A DNA stretch of 30,677 nucleotides from assembly GCA_041671345.1 (NCBI GenBank), contig JBAZBT010000001.1, forward strand, positions 1-30,677, read 5' to 3'. The notes under the pieces were generated by a model, which did not search any database, was not told the DNA's origin, and saw only the letters and a list, made by a program, of their open reading frames with translations. The number at the start of each line of letters is the position of its first letter. The first letter of the stretch is position 1. The position numbers were made by a program, and so were the translations under genes. Of the stretch, positions 3,731-30,495 are shown piece after piece. Source of the DNA: Candidatus Micrarchaeia archaeon. GTDB taxonomy: Archaea > Micrarchaeota > Micrarchaeia > Anstonellales > Anstonellaceae.

Positions 3731-5221
3731 CTACAACCTCCCCTTCCTGCTTATCTTCGACATCAGCTTGCGCCCGCCATCCTTCACTATCTCCCCTGTC
3801 GCGGCAAAACCCTCGCGCAGCATCTCGCCCGAGCCCTCGGTGCCCCTGCTTACAATCTTCCGCGTGAAGTCCCAGCCGTCCATCACGTGCGCGACCGCGC
3901 CCTGCGTGGGGTAGACCGCCACGAGCTTGAATATCATCGCGCGGTCGGCAGTTGTATTGGCGATTTCCTTGCTTGAGGCAAGGTGCGGGGTGAATGCGAG
4001 CGCGACTGCCAGCCTCATCGCCCCCGACAGCAGGAACACAAGCAATATGCCTGAGAAGCCAAGCAGTCCCGCGCCCGGGTACGCCATGAGGAAATAGCCG
4101 CCGGCAAGCGCGCCAGCGGCGTTCGCGATGCACGAGAACGCGTTGTATTTCGAGATGAACGACGGGCGAAGCTCCCTGCTCACAAGCGAGAGCGACGAGT
4201 TGAAGATGGACAGGTCATATCCCGCCCAGATGAAGCCCGAGAAAACCTGGAAGAGCGCCAGCATCCAGACGTCGCCGGAAAAAAGCCAGAGGAGCGGCAC
4301 GAGCGGCGCCATGAAGGCGGTGGTGATAAGCACCGTCCTGTTCGAGAAGCGGTCTATCGCCTTGCCCCAGTACGGGAAGCAGATTATCTTGGTGATTATC
4401 GAAATCGCAGTGAGGATGCCCAGCATCCCGACGTCCATCCCAAGGTCATGGAGCATGTATGGCGTGAAGAACGGGGAGGAGAACTGCACCGCGAAATTCA
4501 TGAGCGCGACGAACGCCAGGAACCACAGCTCGTTCTTGTAGGATGGCAGCAGGAACAGGTGCTTCATCTTTATCTCGTTCATGAGCTTGATTTCGTATGG
4601 CACGCCCGCGGTCCTTGCATGGAAAATCACGGTGGCCGCGCGCGCTGCGAACGACGCGCAGAAAACAATGCCGAATGCCGCCGCGGCTGCCACGTGCAGC
4701 TGCAGCTGCCCCACCATGATGCCTCCCCCGAACGTGGCCGCGAACAGCATCACCTGCATGAGGCGGTTCCTGTTGGCAAAAAAGCGCGCGCGGTCGTTCT
4801 GCTCCACGATGTCCGCAACCCAGCTCGACCACACCGGGTTTATCAGAAGCGAGGTGCCTGCGCCAAGCGAGAAGAAGAATATTATGAGCGGCACGGAATA
4901 GGCATTCGGCCACAGGAGAAGGGCAATCACCGGCAGCCAGGTGAGCGCCTGGAAAGCGGAGCCCGCCATCACCAAAAGCTTCCTGTCCTTCGCAAGCCGC
5001 AGGGCGGACAGCGAGAAGGCCTGCGCAATGCCGCCGAAAAGCTGGGGCAGCGCGGTCAGCATGCCTATCCAGAAGTTCGTCGCGCCCAAAAACACGAGCG
5101 CCGCGGGCAGGTATGCGTCGCCAAGCCCGGCCATCACGGAATAAGCCATGCCGTCCGCGGTGATGTTCCCCATCGACCCCTTTCTCTGCTCAAAGCTGAG
5201 GTTGCCGGATTTTTCTTCCAT
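3731..5221 (-). CDS. MFS transporter (about 12 TM), 496 aa
   Basis: Two hydrophobic 6-TM halves with loop motif WGKAIDRFSNR. Start chosen at MEEKSG (5221); the ORF track extends to 5302. Confidence 0.85.
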   Translation of the reverse strand: MEEKSGNLSFEQRKGSMGNITADGMAYSVMAGLGDAYLPAALVFLGATNFWIGMLTALPQLFGGIAQAFSLSALRLAKDRKLLVMAGSAFQALTWLPVIALLLWPNAYSVPLIIFFFSLGAGTSLLINPVWSSWVADIVEQNDRARFFANRNRLMQVMLFAATFGGGIMVGQLQLHVAAAAAFGIVFCASFAARAATVIFHARTAGVPYEIKLMNEIKMKHLFLLPSYKNELWFLAFVALMNFAVQFSSPFFTPYMLHDLGMDVGMLGILTAISIITKIICFPYWGKAIDRFSNRTVLITTAFMAPLVPLLWLFSGDVWMLALFQVFSGFIWAGYDLSIFNSSLSLVSRELRPSFISKYNAFSCIANAAGALAGGYFLMAYPGAGLLGFSGILLVFLLSGAMRLAVALAFTPHLASSKEIANTTADRAMIFKLVAVYPTQGAVAHVMDGWDFTRKIVSRGTEGSGEMLREGFAATGEIVKDGGRKLMSKISRKGRL

Positions 5222-10362: not shown

Positions 10363-13869
<3,507 letters not shown>

Positions 13870-15913: not shown

Positions 15914-18499
15914 CTAGGCGGCGCGCCTGTTTGCAGGCTTGGGCCCGATTATAGGCTTTGGAACCGCCTTCACTGTTTCGTTTGCCCCTGCCGCTTCCAC
16001 TGCCGTGCCGTTGTTCAGCCCGGGCTTGGGATGCAGCATCGCTGCGCCGTTGAAGTAGAACGGCGTGAGCGGGGCGTAGTCGACTGCATTGCCCGTTATC
16101 TTGCCCTGCGAGGTGCTCGCGCTGTATGGGAAGCCTGTTCCGTTCCTGCCGATGTAGAGTGAAGGGAAACCGCTTGACGTCTGGTTGCCCTGCACCTTCA
16201 CTGCGCCCGACAGGACGTTTGCGTAGATGTTGCCCTCCTGATTGCCGTTTACGCTTGCGTTGTAGGAGTTTCCGCCCGCCATGTCGTTGATGTAAATATT
16301 GCCGCCTGTGAAGTTGTTCCAGTAGAACGTGTTGCCGCTTGCTGCCCCCTGGATTTTCACCAGGCTCCCGCCTGATGCGAGCGTGTTGTTCACAATCACG
16401 TTGCCCGTGCTGCTGCCGGAAAACGAATCGATTGTCAGCGCCGCGCCGCCCGTCGAAATCATTGTGCTGTTCTCCACCCTGTTGTTGCTGGCATCCTCTA
16501 TCAAGAGCGCGCCCGCGGTTCCCGTGAACCTGCTTGATTTGACAACCGTGAAGCTCGACGAGGTTATCCAGTTCCCCTTCAGCATGCCTCCCCCGGTGCT
16601 GTTTGCATTGCAGGCGTCCAGGACCGTATTGTTGCTGGCATATGCGCCAAAGCCCGCCGACCCGATGGCGCTGCAGTTGACAAGCAAATTGCCGCTTGAG
16701 AGGTCCAAGGCAATTCCCACGTCGTATGCTGAAATGCCTTTTGTATTTGAAAGGATGTTGTTGTTGCTTGAAGCCGATATCGATATCCCTGGCGCATCAT
16801 TCGTTATCGTGCCATTCATCGTGCCTATGCAGCTTTCCAGCACGTTGTTGCTGCTGCCGTGCATCAGCACTGATGGCGAACTGGCGCCCGGGTAATGGCG
16901 GTTGGTCCCATTCACTCCCACGAGCCGGTTGTAGTTCGAGTGTATGGTGTGCACTGCGTTATTCGATGCGGCGCCATTCTCGCCAATGTCAAAGCTGGAC
17001 GATGAGATATTGTTGTAATCGCTATTGTCCAGCCAGAGCGCATCGTCTCGGGTGGTCGCCTTGACTTTTGAAATCGTGTTGTATTGGCTTCCAATAAGCC
17101 TGACTCCTGAGCTCCTGAAATACTGGCTGGACGAACTGTCGATGCTAATGTTTTCCACATTGCTGAAAGTTGCGGATTGGAGCACTATTCCGTATGCAAA
17201 TGCGTCTAGCCTGCAGTTTCTCATCCTGGTGTTGGACCTGCCTGTGGCGTCTATCCCGGTCCCTCCGCTGCCAATTTCCGTTATGCTGTGCCCGTTGCAC
17301 TCTATTGTCACGTTGTCCGCCGCCACGGTAAAGCAAGTGCCTGTGCTGTTTAGGTTTGAAGTCACGTTGCACACATAGTTCGGCGCATTCAGCACCCCGC
17401 ACTGGCATCCCTGCGCAGGCGCCGTGGTGTTGTTGAAGTAGAACTGCGTGAGGGGCGCGTAATCAATCGCGCTGCCCACTATCTTGCCCTGCGATGTGGT
17501 CGAGTTGTACGGGTAGCCGGTTCCATTCATGCCTATGTAAAGCCCCTGCCCGTAGGCCGAGGAAACATTGCCCTGCACCTGCACGGCTCCGCTAAGCACA
17601 TTGGCATAGATGTTGCCCTCCGGCCTGCCGTTCACCAGCTTGGTGTAATAGTTGCCGGGTGAGCTGTCATTGATGTACGCGCCGCTTGTTGCGGTGAAGT
17701 TGTTCCAGTAGATGGTGTTCATTGGCGATGAAGGGTTGAGCGCCAAGAGGCTATTGGACGCGCCTCCGGAGACGAACGTGCTGCCGTATATGCTGTTGGA
17801 GAAGGCGGAGGAGAGCGACGCCACGCCGCCTGACGAGGAAGTGAAGGTGCTGTTCGCTATCGTGTTGCCGTTCCCGCCCGTGATTGCGAGGGCGGCGCCC
17901 GAGGCTGCGGTGACGCGCGCGTTTGAGACTGTGTTGGAGGCGGCCGTGAGCAGGTACAGCGCCATCGTGCTCGAGCTTGCGGTGAAATCGGAGAGCCTGT
18001 TGTCGTGCGGGCCCCCCTGCAGCACTATCTGCCCGCTTGCGTTGAAGTTGGAGAGGGTGTTGTTGGCCGTCGAGAAAATCATGTAGATGCTTTTCTGGCC
18101 TGATGCGGTGAAGCCTGCCAGGGTGTGCTGCCCTCCTGCGGCAATCGTGATGCCAGCCCCGGCTGGCGAGCTTGCCGCCGTGCCCTGCAGAAGCGCGCCT
18201 GTTGCGCCGTCGAGGTAGACGCCGGTGCTGAAGCCGTATACCATGCAGTTCCTGACCGTCGTGTTCTGCTGGTTGGAGTGGATGCCGTAGCCCGCGCCTA
18301 ACCCTGTCACGGAGTGGCCCGCGCAGTCTATCTCGACGTTGGGCGCAGCCACGGTGAAGCACGTCCCGTCTGCCTGCACATTTTGGGCAAGGGTGTAAAT
18401 GCCGGGGGATGATAGCGTTTGGCACGCCGAAACATCCACTGCGAAAGCGCTTCCTAAAAGGGCAACAAATGAGATAACGAGCATGAAATTATTCCTCAT
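15914..18499 (-). CDS. secreted right-handed parallel beta-helix (PbH1/NosD-like) surface protein with two tandem modules
   Basis: Signal peptide (MRNNFMLVISFVALLGSAFA), many NNxxxN repeats, duplicated N-cap and C-cap motifs; TTTATAAA at 18536-18543. Confidence 0.85.
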   Translation of the reverse strand: MRNNFMLVISFVALLGSAFAVDVSACQTLSSPGIYTLAQNVQADGTCFTVAAPNVEIDCAGHSVTGLGAGYGIHSNQQNTTVRNCMVYGFSTGVYLDGATGALLQGTAASSPAGAGITIAAGGQHTLAGFTASGQKSIYMIFSTANNTLSNFNASGQIVLQGGPHDNRLSDFTASSSTMALYLLTAASNTVSNARVTAASGAALAITGGNGNTIANSTFTSSSGGVASLSSAFSNSIYGSTFVSGGASNSLLALNPSSPMNTIYWNNFTATSGAYINDSSPGNYYTKLVNGRPEGNIYANVLSGAVQVQGNVSSAYGQGLYIGMNGTGYPYNSTTSQGKIVGSAIDYAPLTQFYFNNTTAPAQGCQCGVLNAPNYVCNVTSNLNSTGTCFTVAADNVTIECNGHSITEIGSGGTGIDATGRSNTRMRNCRLDAFAYGIVLQSATFSNVENISIDSSSSQYFRSSGVRLIGSQYNTISKVKATTRDDALWLDNSDYNNISSSSFDIGENGAASNNAVHTIHSNYNRLVGVNGTNRHYPGASSPSVLMHGSSNNVLESCIGTMNGTITNDAPGISISASSNNNILSNTKGISAYDVGIALDLSSGNLLVNCSAIGSAGFGAYASNNTVLDACNANSTGGGMLKGNWITSSSFTVVKSSRFTGTAGALLIEDASNNRVENSTMISTGGAALTIDSFSGSSTGNVIVNNTLASGGSLVKIQGAASGNTFYWNNFTGGNIYINDMAGGNSYNASVNGNQEGNIYANVLSGAVKVQGNQTSSGFPSLYIGRNGTGFPYSASTSQGKITGNAVDYAPLTPFYFNGAAMLHPKPGLNNGTAVEAAGANETVKAVPKPIIGPKPANRRAA

Positions 18500-18561
18500 C
18501 AAACCACCACAAACGACAATTCTGCTGCGAAGGTTTTATAAATCGCGCGCGCCCTGCCGCT

Positions 18562-18590
18562 GGGCAAAACAAATAAAAAAGGAAGAAAAA
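18562..18590 (-). terminator. oligo-T terminator after the displaced nrdJ end
   Basis: Minus strand TTTTTCTTCCTTTTTTTATTTGTTTT starts about 12 nt after the displaced TGA. Confidence 0.6.
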
Positions 18591-18602
18591 GGCGGCGGGC
18601 GT

Positions 18603-18659
18603 TCAGCTGCATCCAGTGGTCTCCCCACAGTCGATGCAGACTTGGCACGAGCCGTTCTG
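18603..18659 (-). repeat. displaced original 3' end of nrdJ ([18 protein letters not shown])
   Basis: Encodes the same 18 aa plus stop as 18719-18775 with 16 synonymous nucleotide differences; followed by a T-tract. Confidence 0.95.
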
Positions 18660-18718
18660 CCCCTAGGGGGCATTGGCTAGCCATCAGATCCCCCTGATGG
18701 TTCACCCCCACATGCTTC

Positions 18719-21700
18719 TCATGAGCAACCTGTAGTTTCACCGCAGTCTATGCACACTTGACAAGATCCATTTTGTTTTACTTTCATGGAGCTGCAGGCA
18801 AGGCACTGCGCGCCCGTGAAGCCCTGCTCCTTCGCGGCTTTTGCGCGCGTCTCGTATTCCTCGCTTTCGCTGCCCGTGTCCTTCTCGGCAGGCGCCTCCA
18901 CTAGCTTCCCCTGCGCCTTCTGGTCCTCGATGCGCGGGACGGGCGGGTGCTCGCCTGCCGCGTGCGCGCCGTGCGAGTCGCCGTTCACGGGCTTCACATG
19001 GACAAAGTCAGTCCTCTGCAAATACTCGTACCCCAGCACGCGGAACACGTAGTCCACGATGGAGGTGGCGTTCTTCACGGCATCGTGCCCGGTGACCACG
19101 CCGGCAGGCTCGAAGCGCGTGAAGGTGAACGTGTCCACGAACTCGTCGAGCGGCACTCCGTACTGCAGGCCCTTTGACACCGCGATTGCAAAGCAGTTCA
19201 AAAGCGAGCGGTAGCCCGCGCCTTCCTTGTACATGTCTATGAATATCTCGCCGAGCGCCCCGTCCGGATATTCCCCCGTTTTCAGGTACACCTTGTGCCC
19301 GCCCACCCTCGCCTCCTGGATGAAGCCGCTCCTGCGGGTCGGAAGCTTGCGCCGGTTTATCCTGCCCACTATCTTGCTCTGCATCTGCGCAGGCCCGAAC
19401 GACTCGTCTATCTCGTCGCCAAGCCCGAAAAGCTGCGCAAGCTCGTCCTCGTCGACATCCGCGGTCGCATTGAGCGGCTGGGAGAGCTTGCTGCCGTCGC
19501 GGTAAAGCGCGTTCGACTTCACCATCTGCCTCCAAGAGAGCATGTACGCCTCCTTGATGTCCTCGATGGTGGAGTCGGAGGGCATGTTCACGGTCTTTGA
19601 AATCGAGCCTGACAGGAACGGCTGCGCCGCCGCCATCATGCGTATGTGCGCGGTGTACGGGATGAACCTCTTGCCCTTTTTCCCGCACTTGTTCGCGCAG
19701 TCGAACACCGAGTAGTGCTCCTGCTTGAGGTGCGGCGCGCCCTCGATTGTCATGGTGCCGCACACGTATTCGTTCGCCTCCTCCACCTGCTGCTTGGAAA
19801 AGCCCAGCTTCGACAAAAGGTCGAACTTCGGGTCGGCGAGGTCGGCATCGGCAAACCCGAGCCCCCTCATGAAGTCCTCGCCGAGCACGTACTTGTTGAA
19901 TGCGAACTTTATGTCAAACGCCTTGGGGAGCTGCGCCTCCACCTTCGCGATTTTCTCGGCGGTGAATCCCTTTGCGGCAAGCGCCTCGGCATTCACGTGC
20001 GGGCAGCCCGAAAGCGTGCCCCTGCCTGCGGAATAAAGCTCGATGTCCCTGACCTGCGCGGCTCCGTAGCCGAGCTTGTGCAGGGCCTTCTTCACCGAGT
20101 TGTTCACAATCTTGAAGTACCCGCCCCCTGCGAGCTTCTTGAACTTCACGGTGGCAAAGTCGGGCTCGATTCCCGTGGTGTCGCAGTCCATCTGCAGGCC
20201 TATCGTCCCCGTGGGCGCAATCAGCGTGGTCTGGGCGTTCCTGTAGCCGAATTCCTCGCCGAGCGCATACGCCCTGTCCCAGCATTCCTGCGCCGACTGG
20301 AGCATGTACTCCGGGCAGTGCGTGGGGTGTATCCCCGTCGGCTTGACCGACAGCCCCTCATACTCGTTGTCCGCCGCGCTGTGCGCCGCCCTCCTGTGGT
20401 TCCGAATCACGCGCAGCATGTGCTCGCGGTTCCTCTCGAATGCGGGAAAAGCGCCAAGCTCGCGCGCCATCTCCGCCGATGTGGAATATGCCTCGCCCGT
20501 CATTATCGCCGAAATCGCGCCCGCCATGGCAAGCCCCTGCGGGCTGTCGTACGGCACGCCCATCACCATCAAAAGCGTGCCCAGGTTGGCGTATCCCAGC
20601 CCGAGCGTGCGGAACTCGTAGCTTTTCCTCGCAATCTCCTTGGAGGGGAACTGCGCCATGAGCACAGAAATTTCGAGCACGATTGTCCAAAGCCTGCTTG
20701 CGTGCTTGAATGCCTCGACGTTGAAAACGCAGGTCTCCTCGTTGTAGAACTTCATCAGGTTCATGCTGGCGAGGTTGCACGCGGTGTCGTCAAGGAACAT
20801 GTACTCCGAGCACGGGTTGGACGCGTTTATCCTGCCGTCTATCGGGCAGGTGTGCCACTCGTTTATGATGTCGTCGAACTGCAGCCCCGGGTCGGCGCAG
20901 CTCCACGCCGCGAACGCAATAGTGTCCCACAGGTCGCGCGCCTTCATCCTCTTCATCACGCTCCCGTCGGTCCTTGACAGAAGCGTCCAGTCGGCGTCGT
21001 TCTGCACCGCCCAGACAAACCTGTTGGAGAGCCTTACCGAGTTGTTGCCGTTCTGCCCTGCAACCGTGACATACGCCTCGGACTCGTAGTGCGTGTCGAA
21101 AACCGGGAAGTCGATGTCGGTCTTGCCCTGCTTGACAAGCGCGAGCGTGCGCAGTATGTAGTTCATGGAGACGTTCTTCGCAAGCGCCTGCACGACCGCG
21201 AGCTTGATGCGCTCGTTCTTCAAATCCGTGCTCTGCTCCTCCTTTGCCACGCGCATTATCCTCTTGAGGGATTTCGAGCATGCCTTGGTGCCTGCGACGA
21301 GCGCCGCCACCTTCTGCTCCTCCCTCACCTTCCAGTTCACGAATTTCTCGATGTCCGGATGGTCGACATCCACGATGACCATCTTCGCGGCGCGCCTTGT
21401 CGTGCCGCCGGATTTTATGGCGCCCGCCGCCCTGTCGTATATCTTGAGGAACGACATCATGCCTGACGACTGCCCGCCGCCCGAGAGCCTCTCCCCCTCG
21501 CCCCGCAGGCACGAGAAGTTGGTGCCCGTTCCCGAGCCGTACTTGAAAAGCCGCGCCTCGCGCGTCACGAGGTCGAATATGCCGCCCTCGTTCACGAGGT
21601 CGTCCTTCAGCGACTGGATGAAGCACGCGTGGGGCTGCGGATGCGTGTAGGCATCCGTGGACTGCTTCACCACGCCGTCAGCCGGGTCGACGTAATAGTG

Positions 21701-22216
21701 CCCCTGCCGGTTCCCCGTTATGCCGTACGCGTGCGCAAGGCCCGTGTTGAACCACTGCGGCGAGTTGGGCGACGCCATCTGGCTTGCCAGCATGAACTTC
21801 AGCTCGTCCTCGAACGCGTCCGCGTCCGATTTTGACTGGAAGTACCCGTATTTCTCGCCCCAGCTGCGCCAGCAGCCCGCGAGCCTTCCCACCACTTGCC
21901 TGACCGTTTTCTCGCTTCCGGTGACCGCCTTGCCGTTGCTGTCCTTGAGGGCGTTCCCCTGCTTGTCGTATTGCGGCACGCCGGCTTTCCTGAAGTATTT
22001 CTGCGCCACGATGTCGGTTGCCACCTGCGACCAGCTTTTCGGCACCTCGACGTCGCGCATCTCGAAGACGACCGAGCCGTCGGAGTTCCTGATGACCGAG
22101 GTGCGAAGCTCATATTCCACTGCGTCCAGCGGGTCGGCCCCCTCTTCAGTAAAAAGCCTCTTTATCTTCATTCCGCCCTGCCTGGTCGCTTGTTTTGCCA
22201 CACTCGCCTCAGCCAC
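18719..22216 (-). CDS. nrdJ: class II adenosylcobalamin-dependent ribonucleotide reductase with C-terminal TSCPD domain and Zn ribbon
   Basis: [23 protein letters not shown] (thiyl Cys), ACNLAS, APTGTIG, GIEPD; C-terminal CxxC...CxxC; GTG start with SD GAGGTG. Confidence 0.95.
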
Positions 22217-26546: not shown

Positions 26547-26548
26547 GC

Positions 26549-26583
26549 CTGCGTCCCCTTCGCGCAGTCGTTGCAGACAAAGC
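26549..26583 (-). repeat. displaced copy of the Zn-finger gene 3' end (direct repeat 1)
   Basis: 34/35 identical to 27347-27381; reads FVCNDCAKGTQ, then A and a TAA stop at 26543-26545. Confidence 0.95.
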
Positions 26584-26598
26584 TCCAAGGGGAGTCCC

Positions 26599-27303
26599 TC
26601 AAGCTTTAGGCGTTTCTGTTATCATGTCGAATTCTTTCTCATACTTGCCTCTTAGAAATACCTCGAATATGGCGATGGCAAATGGAAGCAAGATTGCATA
26701 TGGCGCCAGCAAAACCGTTCCGGCAAGAGTCAGCTTGCCGATGAATTTTTTCAATGATCTGCCCGTGAACTGGTTGTTCTTTTTTAAAACAGCGGCATAT
26801 TCCCCCTTTCCGATGATTTTCGATGCAAGAATGTCTGTTCTTGCCTCGATTTTTCCAATAAAAACAGCAAGAAAGACGTTTACTGCCGCAATCGTGCCAA
26901 TTGCCAGCCCGGCCGATTTGGTGGCTATCGAATAAATTATAGCTGCGGCTTCCAAGGCGTATGCAAGATAGATGGTCGCCCCGAACTTTTTCACGTCTTT
27001 TTTATAGTAATGGATGAACTCATGCGCTGAAACAGCATTCACCGTGCCCTTGTCCGCAATGCCCAGATAGGGAACTGAAAAGGAAACAGCGCCTTTCCAC
27101 GTGTTGCTGGCTTGCGGAAACGGCAATTTATGCAATTCCATCCTTGGCGGGGCAATTCCAAACATTTTGGACAGCTTCCGAATCCTGTCTTCAGCCACTG
27201 CCGCATTCGCCACGGCTTTTTTAGAATAAGCCCCGCCTGTAACCGGCTCCCGAAACAAAGACTGTTTTGTTGCCCGCATAGGATGGAATCTATGCAGAAG
27301 CAT
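26599..27303 (-). CDS. M48/M56-like membrane zinc metallopeptidase (cassette cargo)
   Basis: HEFIH motif, two TM helices, then EARTD (third-ligand position); AT-richer than host genes. Confidence 0.7.
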   Translation of the reverse strand: MLLHRFHPMRATKQSLFREPVTGGAYSKKAVANAAVAEDRIRKLSKMFGIAPPRMELHKLPFPQASNTWKGAVSFSVPYLGIADKGTVNAVSAHEFIHYYKKDVKKFGATIYLAYALEAAAIIYSIATKSAGLAIGTIAAVNVFLAVFIGKIEARTDILASKIIGKGEYAAVLKKNNQFTGRSLKKFIGKLTLAGTVLLAPYAILLPFAIAIFEVFLRGKYEKEFDMITETPKA

Positions 27304-27340
27304 TTTTAAAAGTAGCCAAAAGTGGAACTGCGCGAGAGAG

Positions 27341-27481
27341 CTACTGCTGCGTCCCCTTTGCGCAGTCGTTGCAGACAAAGCCCGTCTTGCAGTTCGGCCT
27401 TCCGCAGTTGCCCTTCCCGCACGCGCGGCAGGTCTCGGTCGCAGTCCTCCCGCAAATCGCGCACAAACCAGCAATGTTCAT
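27341..27481 (-). CDS. small Cys-rich zinc-finger protein, 46 aa (absent from the ORF track)
   Basis: MNIAGLCAICGRTATETCRACGKGNCGRPNCKTGFVCNDCAKGTQQ* has three CxxC motifs plus 2 Cys; TTTAAATATA box about 30 nt upstream. Confidence 0.85.
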   Translation of the reverse strand: MNIAGLCAICGRTATETCRACGKGNCGRPNCKTGFVCNDCAKGTQQ

Positions 27482-27509
27482 AAGAATCACTTCAACGGGA
27501 ATTGGGGGG

Positions 27510-28752: not shown

Positions 28753-28800
28753 TCACTTCAGCACGCCGTAGCCCGGCAATCTCCGCCGTTGGCCAAAGCG
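28753..28800 (-). repeat. displaced, decaying copy of the aIF2gamma 3' end
   Basis: Reads RFGQRRRLPGYGVLK* versus active RLGQRWRLSGYGVLK* (29299-29346). Confidence 0.9.
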
Positions 28801-28814
28801 CCCGCCTAATCACT

Positions 28815-29264
28815 TCAGTATATGTACTCAATTTTCACTCCTGGGAAATCCTTTGCCGTGGGCACATAATCGCTCCTTACGAAGCTGACAATCCTCGTTC
28901 CATCCTTGAACTGGAAACGCATCCATGTGCTCCTCGGGCCCCTTACGGCTTGGGCCAAAGGCTGATGGAATTCCACTTTTTCCAGCCGTGCAATCAAGTA
29001 TTTTTTCGACGTCTGCGCGGCAAGCGGTTTTTTGGTCAGGAATTCGATTGTCCCACTGGCGCTTTGCACGCGGACTTCCCTTTCAGTCGCAAGATCCATC
29101 ATGGCAAATGCAATTATGGCAAAGAAAACTGCTCTAAATACTGGGGTAACCCATCCTTCCGCGGGGTCTACAAAAAAATAAAGAAGGCTGAATAAGCAGC
29201 ACGCAAGCGCTAGGGCCACTGCAACATCAAATATCCGTTGATTGGAATTTTTCCTCGCCAACAC
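28815..29264 (-). CDS. 2-TM membrane protein with beta-rich (PH-like) cytoplasmic domain (cassette cargo)
   Basis: Two hydrophobic helices followed by a beta-strand pattern; AT-richer; SD-like AGGGTGA upstream. Confidence 0.6.
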   Translation of the reverse strand: MLARKNSNQRIFDVAVALALACCLFSLLYFFVDPAEGWVTPVFRAVFFAIIAFAMMDLATEREVRVQSASGTIEFLTKKPLAAQTSKKYLIARLEKVEFHQPLAQAVRGPRSTWMRFQFKDGTRIVSFVRSDYVPTAKDFPGVKIEYIY

Positions 29265-29298
29265 AATGCAGTCTTTTTCTTTCGTGTCTTCACCCTGT

Positions 29299-30495
29299 TT
29301 ACTTCAGCACGCCGTACCCTGACAATCTCCATCTCTGCCCGAGCCTGCGCGTGATTGCCATCTTGTTGCCCTTCTCGGCGCAGACGGGGCGCTTGAGCTT
29401 CAGCGTCACCGTGGTGCCCTTGAGCTTGACAATGACGCCAAGCGTGGTCGCCGTGCCAGACGAAACCACGAGCGGCTCCGCGGCTTTCAGCGCAGGATTG
29501 TCAAAGCCTTCGCGCGCAAGCAGCTTGTAATCAAGCACAATCTCCGAAAGAATGGGCGGAAGCGTCCCCTTTTTCCCGATCAAATTCCCGACGAGGTGGT
29601 CCGACTTCGCAACCGCGGGGTCAAGCCCTGTTGCAACGCCGATGAGCCCGCCCGGGTGCGCCTCCTGCACCGACTGGCTGCCCGCCATGAGCGCGGTCAC
29701 TTTCAGGACAAGGGGCTCGGTGCTTTCCTTGTCCTTTATCTTCTTGGAAATGCCCGGGGCGATTTCAATCTCGTCGCCCACTTTCAGGGTGCCCTGTATG
29801 AGCGAGCCGCCCACCACGCCCCCCTTCAGCTTCAATATGTCCGCGCCCGGCTTGTTCACGTCGAACGAGCGCGCCACGTACATGCGCGCGGGAAGCGAGG
29901 TGTCCCTCTTCGGGGTTGGAATCGTCTTCTCAATCGCCTCGATGAGCTTGTCTATGTTCGCGTTGTAGTTTGCGGATATCGGGACAATGGGCGCGCCCTC
30001 GGCAGTGGAGCCCTTGAGGAATTTCTTTATCTGCCTGTAGTTCTCCATCGCCTTTTCCTTGTCCACCAGGTCTATCTTGTTCTGCACCACCACGACGTTT
30101 TTTATGCCGAGGATGTCCAGCACCTGCAAATGCTCCTCCGTCTGCGGCTGGGGGCAAACTTCGTTCGCGGCAATCACCAATACCGCGCCGTCCAGTATGG
30201 AAGACGCCGATATGGTGGTGGTCATGAGCGTTTCATGCCCTGGCGCGTCAAGGAAGGAAACATAGCGCGCGACTTCCCACTTGTCCTTGTCCTTTGCCGC
30301 CTCTGCCTCGGTGGCATACCCTGTGCCGTCCTTGCCCTTGTAAAAAGTCACGTCCGCGTAGCCTATCTTTATCGTGATGCCGCGCTTGAGCTCCTCGGAG
30401 TGCGTGTCCGTCCACTTGCCCGTAAGCGCGCGCGTTAAGCTAGTCTTTCCGTGGTCGACGTGCCCGACCATCCCGATGTTCACTTCAGCTTGCAT
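29299..30495 (-). CDS. eif2g: translation initiation factor 2 gamma subunit (aIF2gamma)
   Basis: VNIGMVGHVDHGKT, EELKRGITIKIGY, DAPGHE, QPQTEEH, NKID, RSFDVNKPG, GGVVGG. Confidence 0.97.
   Translation of the reverse strand: MQAEVNIGMVGHVDHGKTSLTRALTGKWTDTHSEELKRGITIKIGYADVTFYKGKDGTGYATEAEAAKDKDKWEVARYVSFLDAPGHETLMTTTISASSILDGAVLVIAANEVCPQPQTEEHLQVLDILGIKNVVVVQNKIDLVDKEKAMENYRQIKKFLKGSTAEGAPIVPISANYNANIDKLIEAIEKTIPTPKRDTSLPARMYVARSFDVNKPGADILKLKGGVVGGSLIQGTLKVGDEIEIAPGISKKIKDKESTEPLVLKVTALMAGSQSVQEAHPGGLIGVATGLDPAVAKSDHLVGNLIGKKGTLPPILSEIVLDYKLLAREGFDNPALKAAEPLVVSSGTATTLGVIVKLKGTTVTLKLKRPVCAEKGNKMAITRRLGQRWRLSGYGVLK

Follow-up and report, generated by a model that had tools for sequence, protein, structure and literature searches.

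A duplicated and recoded 3' end of nrdJ around a small structured repeat in a groundwater micrarchaeon

Introduction

How does a gene come to end twice, in the same amino acids and in different codons? The question is raised by nrdJ, the gene of a class II ribonucleotide reductase with a Cys-rich C-terminal tail (1165 amino acids; positions 18719..22216, minus strand, from its open reading frame (ORF) and translation), in a groundwater Micrarchaeota genome that is 72% complete and is referred to below as G000. The stretch analysed, here called the window, comprises the first 30,677 nucleotides (nt) of contig JBAZBT010000001.1 of assembly GCA_041671345.1. In this window, nrdJ is terminated by an AT-rich set of 18 codons, and a GC-rich version of the same codons lies stranded shortly downstream. 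A first-pass annotation, made from the letters alone, had read the arrangement as the scar of a homing-type element that supplied a replacement end and then lost its cargo. Comparison with related archaea, whose genomes, contigs and loci are designated by G, C and L codes, leads to a different reading: the space between the two ends is largely taken up by a complete copy of a small repeat, designated E, and the tail of nrdJ probably arose when a small mobile element without cargo inserted there and replaced the end of the gene.

Two synonymous ends of nrdJ

The active end, c1 (18719..18775, minus strand), comprises 18 codons and TGA, as does the stranded end, c2 (18603..18659, minus strand), which lies out of frame with nrdJ and is preceded by an in-frame TAG two codons upstream. 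Both encode the same 18-amino-acid peptide, with 16 of 57 nt different, in 14 codons, and every difference synonymous; the offset from c1 to c2 is 116 nt and the spacer between them (18718..18660) is 59 nt long. The observation of the first-pass annotation, two recoded ends 59 nt apart, is thus confirmed. Since only about 20% of the single-base changes possible in c2 are synonymous, and since 16 random changes to c2 altered the peptide in every one of 200,000 simulations, the likeness of the two peptides is not due to chance. Downstream of c2 lies a T-rich tract (18560..18592, minus strand), which is probably an archaeal terminator, and beyond it an intergenic region that is conserved among relatives.

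The annotation had named two findings that would have spoken against a stranded end, its absence from the reads spanning the region and its membership in a truncated second nrdJ paralog. Neither was observed: the region is covered without a break in a second assembly of the same reads, and c2 lacks any nrdJ homology upstream. This second assembly is a Logan contig of 1047 nt from the source run, which matches positions 18300-19100 with zero differences at a depth of about 5x; as it derives from the same reads, it provides a check that is independent of the assembler and not of the sample. In a second sample (run X2), the organism is present and its contig ends before the region of the nrdJ tail. 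Analogous arrangements occur in several unrelated metagenome-assembled genomes (MAGs) and metagenome contigs.

The downstream end is native and the active end foreign

Because its flanks are syntenic with those of relatives that have a single nrdJ end, and because its GC content at third codon positions (GC3) is host-like, c2 is identified as the native end. The sequence 3' of c2, including the T-tract, aligns with the sequence 3' of the single nrdJ ends in relatives L005, L009 and L067, and the first 20 nt of c2 are identical to the active tails of the close relatives L067 and L068. The GC3 of c2 is 0.78, compared with 0.85 for the whole of nrdJ, whereas that of c1 is 0.28, well below the lowest 18-codon window outside the tail (0.50); tails as AT-rich as c1 are found in only 1.6% of the 574 long ORFs of G000.

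The active end is a piece of the nrdJ of another lineage, together with the first bases after its stop codon, as indicated by its outlying GC3, its closer likeness to the tails of other species and the match of its flank. It is nearest to the tails of low-GC members of the genus, with 8 differences to L020 as compared to 16 to c2. The 9-nt linker that follows its stop codon, GAAGCATGT (18710..18718, minus strand), resembles the nrdJ 3' flank of other lineages: a second strain present in the G014 bin has, on contig C67, an nrdJ end that matches the 3' half of c1 and the 6 nt after it (GAAGCA), and the corresponding bases are GAAGGA in L066 and GAACAT in G012. By a rough estimate, the chance of at least one 6-nt flank match among about 25 flanks is below 1%. 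In the search for a donor, the 3' half of c1 with its flank matched only G014:C67 among species representatives and nothing in IMG/VR. The G014 bin carries two nrdJ ends, on contigs C38 and C67, that are 87% identical over 176 nt, from which it is concluded that the bin holds two related strains; the candidate reading of the C67 end as an element-borne extra copy was accordingly rejected.

Two of the claims of the first-pass annotation thus stood, that the stranded copy is the native one and that the active end was imported as a replacement, which would have arrived together with the intervening DNA. Less can be made of the AT-rich stretch AAA GTA AAA (Lys-Val-Lys; 18776..18784, minus strand) immediately upstream of c1, at which the lowest GC3 window of nrdJ starts. 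It may be a co-conversion tract or native sequence, and the composition does not decide between the two because the closest relative, G006, carries the same three codons natively. Duplication in situ followed by neutral divergence was rejected as the origin of the two ends, since an unconstrained copy would hold most of the changes and these would be mostly non-synonymous, whereas all 16 are synonymous, the simulations never preserved the peptide and c1 is nearer to the tails of other species.

The spacer contains an intact copy of element E

The 59-nt spacer consists of the 9-nt flank of nrdJ type, an intact 49-nt copy of E in antisense to nrdJ (18661..18709, minus strand; the sense of E is the plus strand) and a single junction base, G, at position 18660, between E and c2. 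Such a complete account of the spacer leaves no room for a deletion scar, and the claim that an element had lost its cargo here was not upheld. In an alignment of 27 copies of E (alignment A1), invariant ends surround a variable loop of about 20 nt; the consensus reads CCNTAGGGGG, the loop, and CCCCCT(G/A)ANGG(T)TCACCCCC. The copy in the window can be aligned from end to end, agrees with the consensus in every one of the 26 invariant columns and shows BLAST identities of 82-86% to other copies. The hairpin, the GGGGG run and the CCCCTAGGGG motif to which the annotation had drawn attention are indeed present, and they are parts of one copy of E rather than separate features. The supposed Shine-Dalgarno-like GGGGG with its ATG is likewise not the remnant of a gene start, the GGGGG being an invariant part of E and the ATG falling in the variable loop.

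Two further copies of E are present in G000, and the element occurs in 22 of 23 genomes of the genus, with 1-14 copies in each; a search of 68 genomes from 31 other genera of the order gave no copy, so that one of the 32 genera sampled is positive. One position of the stem covaries in alignment A1 (C-G, G-C and A-T), and the G-U pairs of E form only on the tRNA-sense strand. The start of most copies coincides exactly with the 5' splice site of a tRNA intron; the introns concerned interrupt tRNA-Arg(TCT) at position 37/38, several tRNAs in the T-loop, and tRNAs of the Ser/Cys type. The other usual context is directly after the 3' end of a tRNA. In the T-loop introns, as the sequences can be read, a conserved 3' module would pair with the T-loop to form a motif resembling a bulge-helix-bulge (BHB). 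E is a 49-nt structured element, restricted to one genus among those searched, that otherwise serves as the 5' module of putative BHB tRNA introns. No Rfam family matched E at the gathering score or at E-values up to 0.1, and as no arrangement of C and D boxes could be seen by eye either, a box C/D small RNA or other known RNA family was rejected as the identity of E.

The tRNA genes of this genus show further peculiarities. Most tRNA genes detected in G000 have long introns of 20-180 nt, often more than one, and the same tRNA carries at the same T-loop intron position unrelated content in two genomes, E in L251 (G003:C47) and another hairpin element in L041 (G006:C1). Scattered over G000 are copies of a second small palindromic repeat, which contains GCATCAGAC and also occurs nested in the copy of E on contig C115.

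The same layout at other sites of E

Six sites of E in the genus, the nrdJ site included, share one layout. Read antisense to E, a gene body with its functional end is followed by a flank of 0-30 nt, by E, by a stranded copy of the gene end and by the native flank. At nrdJ the duplicated 3' end is 57 nt long, with an identity of 41/57. At L260 (G020), a 24-nt 3' end of another protein gene is duplicated with an identity of 22/24, both differences being synonymous and the new copy AT-richer, and at L043 the 3' end of a tRNA-Asp gene is duplicated, again with an identity of 22/24. The layout extends to gene starts: L257 (G020) holds a tandem array with three copies of the first 13 codons of uvrA (identity 41/41), which at this site (G020:C1, about 390.3 kb) are separated by a 30-nt linker and E, L053 has a duplicated tRNA 5' end (15/15), and at L040 it is the TATA region of a tRNA promoter that is duplicated (17/18).

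In all six cases the stranded copy abuts the 5' end of E, with the flank and the functional copy on its 3' side; under random orientation, such uniformity would be expected in about 3% of cases, a rough figure given six loci. The flank beside the functional copy differs from that after the stranded copy, as expected if the two copies stem from different alleles. The lengths of the flanking copies (15, 18, 24, 24, 41 and 57 nt) are not fixed, and the inverted repeat is internal to E and not terminal, for which reasons a classical insertion sequence or miniature inverted-repeat transposable element was rejected as a description of E.

Recurrent stranded ends at nrdJ in related archaea

Homologues of nrdJ were found in 19 of 22 genomes of the genus, and end duplications recur, with other small elements, at the nrdJ of relatives, in G022/L068, G005/L077, L082, L091/L092 and L167. 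In one group from the same genus (G022/L068/L071, G005/L077 and L082/L111), the active stop codon is followed, with no spacer at all, by a partial old end, and in the old ends of this group a two-hairpin element about 55 nt long, with compensatory changes in its stems, interrupts the sequence at TGC|GGG. In L082 (Ga0247842_10000126), three nrdJ ends lie in tandem just after the stop codon; the second and the third are each interrupted by a two-hairpin element, at one and the same codon boundary, and decay of the third is far advanced. Only the hairpin and the last four codons are left in L066 and G012. In another genus, in L091/L092 and L167, a G-rich hairpin element, designated F, lies between the new and old ends, at two different codons. 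The conserved Cys-rich tail of class II ribonucleotide reductase is thus a recurrent landing site in Micrarchaeota.

The stranded copies of relatives decay over time, with a Cys codon turned into a stop in L082 and L111 and a 1-nt deletion in G022, and the pristine state of c2 therefore points to a recent event. The synonymous divergence of the tails is also high, even between close relatives: between L066 and L067, it is 0.12 for the gene body and 0.56 for the tail, and among close pairs it reaches 0.59 in the last 9 codons compared with 0.19-0.45 in other windows, a modest contrast drawn from pairs that are not independent.

The first-pass annotation had proposed to look in relatives for alleles with an intact ORF between the two ends; none was found among about 170 related nrdJ loci, and cargo-bearing nrdJ alleles were not found in 22 genomes of the genus, 80 metagenome loci and 76 genome loci. 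Separately, the nrdJ frames of G012, G022, G021 and G020 are 1500-1600 amino acids long, as compared to 1165 here, which suggests inteins or other insertions in the gene body.

A probable cargo-less, end-replacing insertion

The reading that we consider probable is that a small mobile element, carrying no cargo, replaced the end of nrdJ by inserting there. It builds on what was observed, namely the anatomy of the locus, the foreign active end, the membership of the spacer in the E family, and the recurrence and polarity of the layout. Direct 57-nt copies flank the linker and E, and one of them reconstitutes nrdJ, as would be expected of a tyrosine-integrase integrative element (pNOB8 or SSV type).

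According to this proposal, a block of 116 bp would have been inserted in frame between a Lys and a Gln codon, 18 codons ahead of the stop of nrdJ. In the reading direction of the gene, this block would consist of the foreign last 18 codons with their stop, 9 nt of foreign 3' flank, and the antisense copy of E with the junction base. The imported end would now terminate the protein, with the native end and its terminator left as untranslated 3' sequence. The simplest supposition is that another member of the genus was the source of end, flank and E together, transferred as a single unit. The spread of E would take place at the level of DNA and always with one polarity, the 5' edge (in the sense of E) facing the stranded copy and the 3' side accompanied by the flank and the functional copy. 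The element appears to bring a copy of the gene end along with it, and only those insertions in which this copy rebuilds the end of a gene would survive. Two candidates may be named for the joining step, a tyrosine integrase acting in trans and cutting at the 5' boundary of E, and a linear or circular copy, beginning precisely at the 5' end of E, captured by host recombination or end joining.

No nuclease, integrase or ORF was found at the nrdJ site. An integrase with the PF00589 domain is encoded in 12 of 23 genomes of the genus, in which reverse transcriptases are rare (3/23), and at two tRNA types E lies 90-140 nt upstream of intact integrase genes, on the same strand. The junction octamers at nrdJ agree at 6 of 8 positions, and E occurs at many different targets. 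A diversity-generating retroelement was rejected as the source of the recoding, given that the differences are of all base types and all synonymous and that G000 has no reverse transcriptase. An 11-nt repeat beside an SRP54-adjacent integrase was likewise rejected as the end of an element, being located inside another gene. As regards the integrases themselves, in a set comprising G003, G018 and L247 (G022:C5), some members of the genus have 11-17 tyrosine integrase genes, many of them just downstream of tRNAs and one directly after the SRP54 stop codon, and a conserved motif of about 20 nt containing GGTCTGATGC is found about 300 nt upstream of one integrase subfamily.

Several observations weigh against the proposed insertion. 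E is found at nrdJ in only one genome, and no donor allele with E placed 9 nt after an nrdJ stop was found. Several nrdJ cases in relatives lack any spacer between the new and the old end, and may therefore arise differently. The polarity rule is drawn from six loci only, and the raised synonymous divergence of nrdJ tails among close relatives would allow a history in two steps. No tyrosine recombinase (PF00589), Y1 transposase or reverse transcriptase was detected in G000, which is 72% complete; the copy number of E does not track the number of integrases across the genus; no attR or other far-end repeat was found within 10-40 kb for the integrases beside E-bearing tRNAs; and the targets of E are many and diverse, where a classical integrase would have a single attachment site.

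A wider generalization is offered tentatively and is, as it stands, rather improbable: that E, F and the two-hairpin elements form a new class of non-autonomous element that carries the gene end of its own target and inserts there in naive genomes, with a break or crossover at the 5' edge of E, giving a BHB intron where it enters a tRNA in the sense orientation, and replacing the end of a gene where it arrives at a terminus. If true, this would provide a DNA-level route for archaeal introns into new sites, protein genes included.

Alternative explanations

The two-step history would have E insert with a duplication of the tail in situ, or beside a neutral tandem duplication over the stop codon, after which homologous recombination with a diverged member of the genus, the nrdJ body and E serving as anchors, would overwrite the active tail and the 9-nt flank. 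The identical flanking copies of uvrA and of L053 are what duplication in situ would give, tandem duplications are common in G000, and synonymous divergence of nrdJ tails is saturated even between close relatives. Such a history would, however, call for a donor allele carrying E at this very place, of which the searches revealed none; it would also make a coincidence of the left edge of the foreign tract, which lies 0-3 codons from the start of the stranded copy, and would place the earlier step very recently, given that this copy is pristine. It is considered a possibility of limited weight. Still further from the evidence is the scar of a homing endonuclease, whether in an intron, an intein or free-standing, that brought a cleavage-resistant end and later lost its ORF. 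Ribonucleotide reductase genes are known homing targets, a recoded replacement end beside a stranded native one is what homing predicts, and the long frames in some relatives suggest inteins elsewhere in the gene. Nevertheless, at nrdJ neither a nuclease ORF nor a remnant of one could be detected, the spacer of flank, intact E and junction base bears no deletion scar, no nuclease ORF separates two ends at any of about 170 related nrdJ loci, and the layout is repeated at tRNA ends, at a tRNA promoter and at the start of uvrA, which share no common cleavage site. The homing interpretation of the first-pass annotation is therefore regarded as unlikely.

Two other accounts were considered. Both ends might be functional if the nrdJ mRNA were spliced by the tRNA splicing endonuclease, the downstream copy being used and so kept intact; E is a genuine BHB intron module in tRNAs, the downstream copy is free of coding damage, and Micrarchaeota are reported to have a splicing endonuclease of broad specificity (PMC3239211). 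Yet E runs antisense to nrdJ, with G-U pairs that form only on the strand that is sense to tRNAs; the predicted fold of the sense RNA comprises local hairpins only (z-score -1.07), with no helix joining the copies and no BHB at their boundaries; spliced and unspliced mRNAs would encode the same protein; and stranded copies decay in relatives, as described for L082, L111 and G022. We regard splicing as very unlikely. A depth of only about 5x, a spacer that is itself a repeat and the two strains in one relative's bin could suggest an assembly artefact or a strain chimera in a low-coverage MAG, whereas the 800 bases recovered by a second assembler are identical, the junction of E and the native end presumably cannot arise from a k-mer common to the repeat and an intact gene, and equivalent arrangements exist in independent samples, including those of L091 and L092. 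An artefact is accordingly held to be extremely improbable.

Relation to known systems

Insertion at the 3' end of a gene with a carried replacement end is familiar from phage 21 and e14 at the icd gene of E. coli, and the nrdJ finding belongs with such gene-end-replacing insertions, within which its minimal size, its tie to a tRNA-intron module and its recurrence across loci and lineages stand out. As in end-replacing integrative elements, direct repeats flank the insert, one of them completing the gene and the other being stranded, and mismatches between element and host are inherited. Unlike them, the nrdJ insert measures 59 bp and lacks an integrase or cargo, no integrase having been found in G000, and members of the E family occupy numerous unrelated targets, where the repeats, 15-57 bp long, differ from target to target and the crossover would need to fall exactly at the edge of E.

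Among archaeal elements, those of the SSV1 and pNOB8 types insert at tRNA genes (PMC3293823), and in the model of Sugahara et al. 2012 a tRNA intron is gained through an integrating mobile element that has the intron in its attachment site (PMC3293823). The present data resemble this model in linking integrative DNA, stranded gene fragments and BHB introns, and in the intact integrase genes that follow closely on E-bearing tRNAs and share their strand, a hallmark of the pNOB8 type. The difference is that the model was drawn for a single tRNA locus and a recombinase element of 1.8 kb, whereas here a 49-nt module with a candidate link to an integrase is found also at the ends of protein genes. 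In the Thermoproteales, BHB tRNA introns are reported to transpose among tRNA genes, so that, as with E, one conserved intron sequence occupies different positions in different tRNA genes. In contrast to those introns, E occurs also outside tRNAs, in either orientation and with flanking target duplications, and therefore points to movement at the DNA level. Streptococci carry integrase-less cis-mobilizable elements that are flanked by attachment sites and accrete in tandem at one site. These share with E the character of small non-autonomous inserts bounded by repeats, and their tandem arrays resemble the uvrA array of L257, although they are kilobases long, bacterial and confined to a single attachment site.

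The locus bears on the way in which archaeal BHB introns gain new positions, because one conserved intron module is seen here in two states, as a functioning tRNA intron and as inserted DNA that is accompanied by target duplications at the termini of protein and tRNA genes, and the nrdJ case may show how such tiny elements spread. With the pristine stranded end of nrdJ and the identical uvrA copies as fresh, datable cases, the link between integrative DNA and intron gain becomes testable in a defined genus. In the annotation of small Micrarchaeota genomes, stranded gene ends and foreign-looking terminal codons are to be expected.

Other duplicated gene ends in the same genome

A genome-wide scan of G000 yielded 37 tail-duplicate matches, several of them repeats in spurious frames, as compared to none with reversed-tail controls. 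Two end duplications that bear cargo lie in the window. At 26547-27490 (minus strand), a gene for a 49-amino-acid zinc-finger protein has a new end with its stop codon, followed by an insert of about 765 nt that encodes a peptidase-like protein with an HExxH motif and is bounded by 35-bp repeats; the old end has one synonymous mismatch and its own stop. At 28755-29345 (minus strand), the end of the aIF2-gamma gene is duplicated around an ORF for a 149-amino-acid membrane protein, and the old end is decayed, with non-synonymous changes (W to R, S to P) that indicate an older event. On contig C13 (minus strand, ORF end at 10671 in reverse-complement coordinates), a 550-amino-acid ORF ends in MENSWGFII and a stop codon, repeated after a 37-nt hairpin spacer with four differences, all synonymous. 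Finally, on contig C21 (plus strand, ORF end at 5059), a 151-amino-acid ORF is accompanied by a near-identical old end that is split by a 57-nt two-hairpin element.

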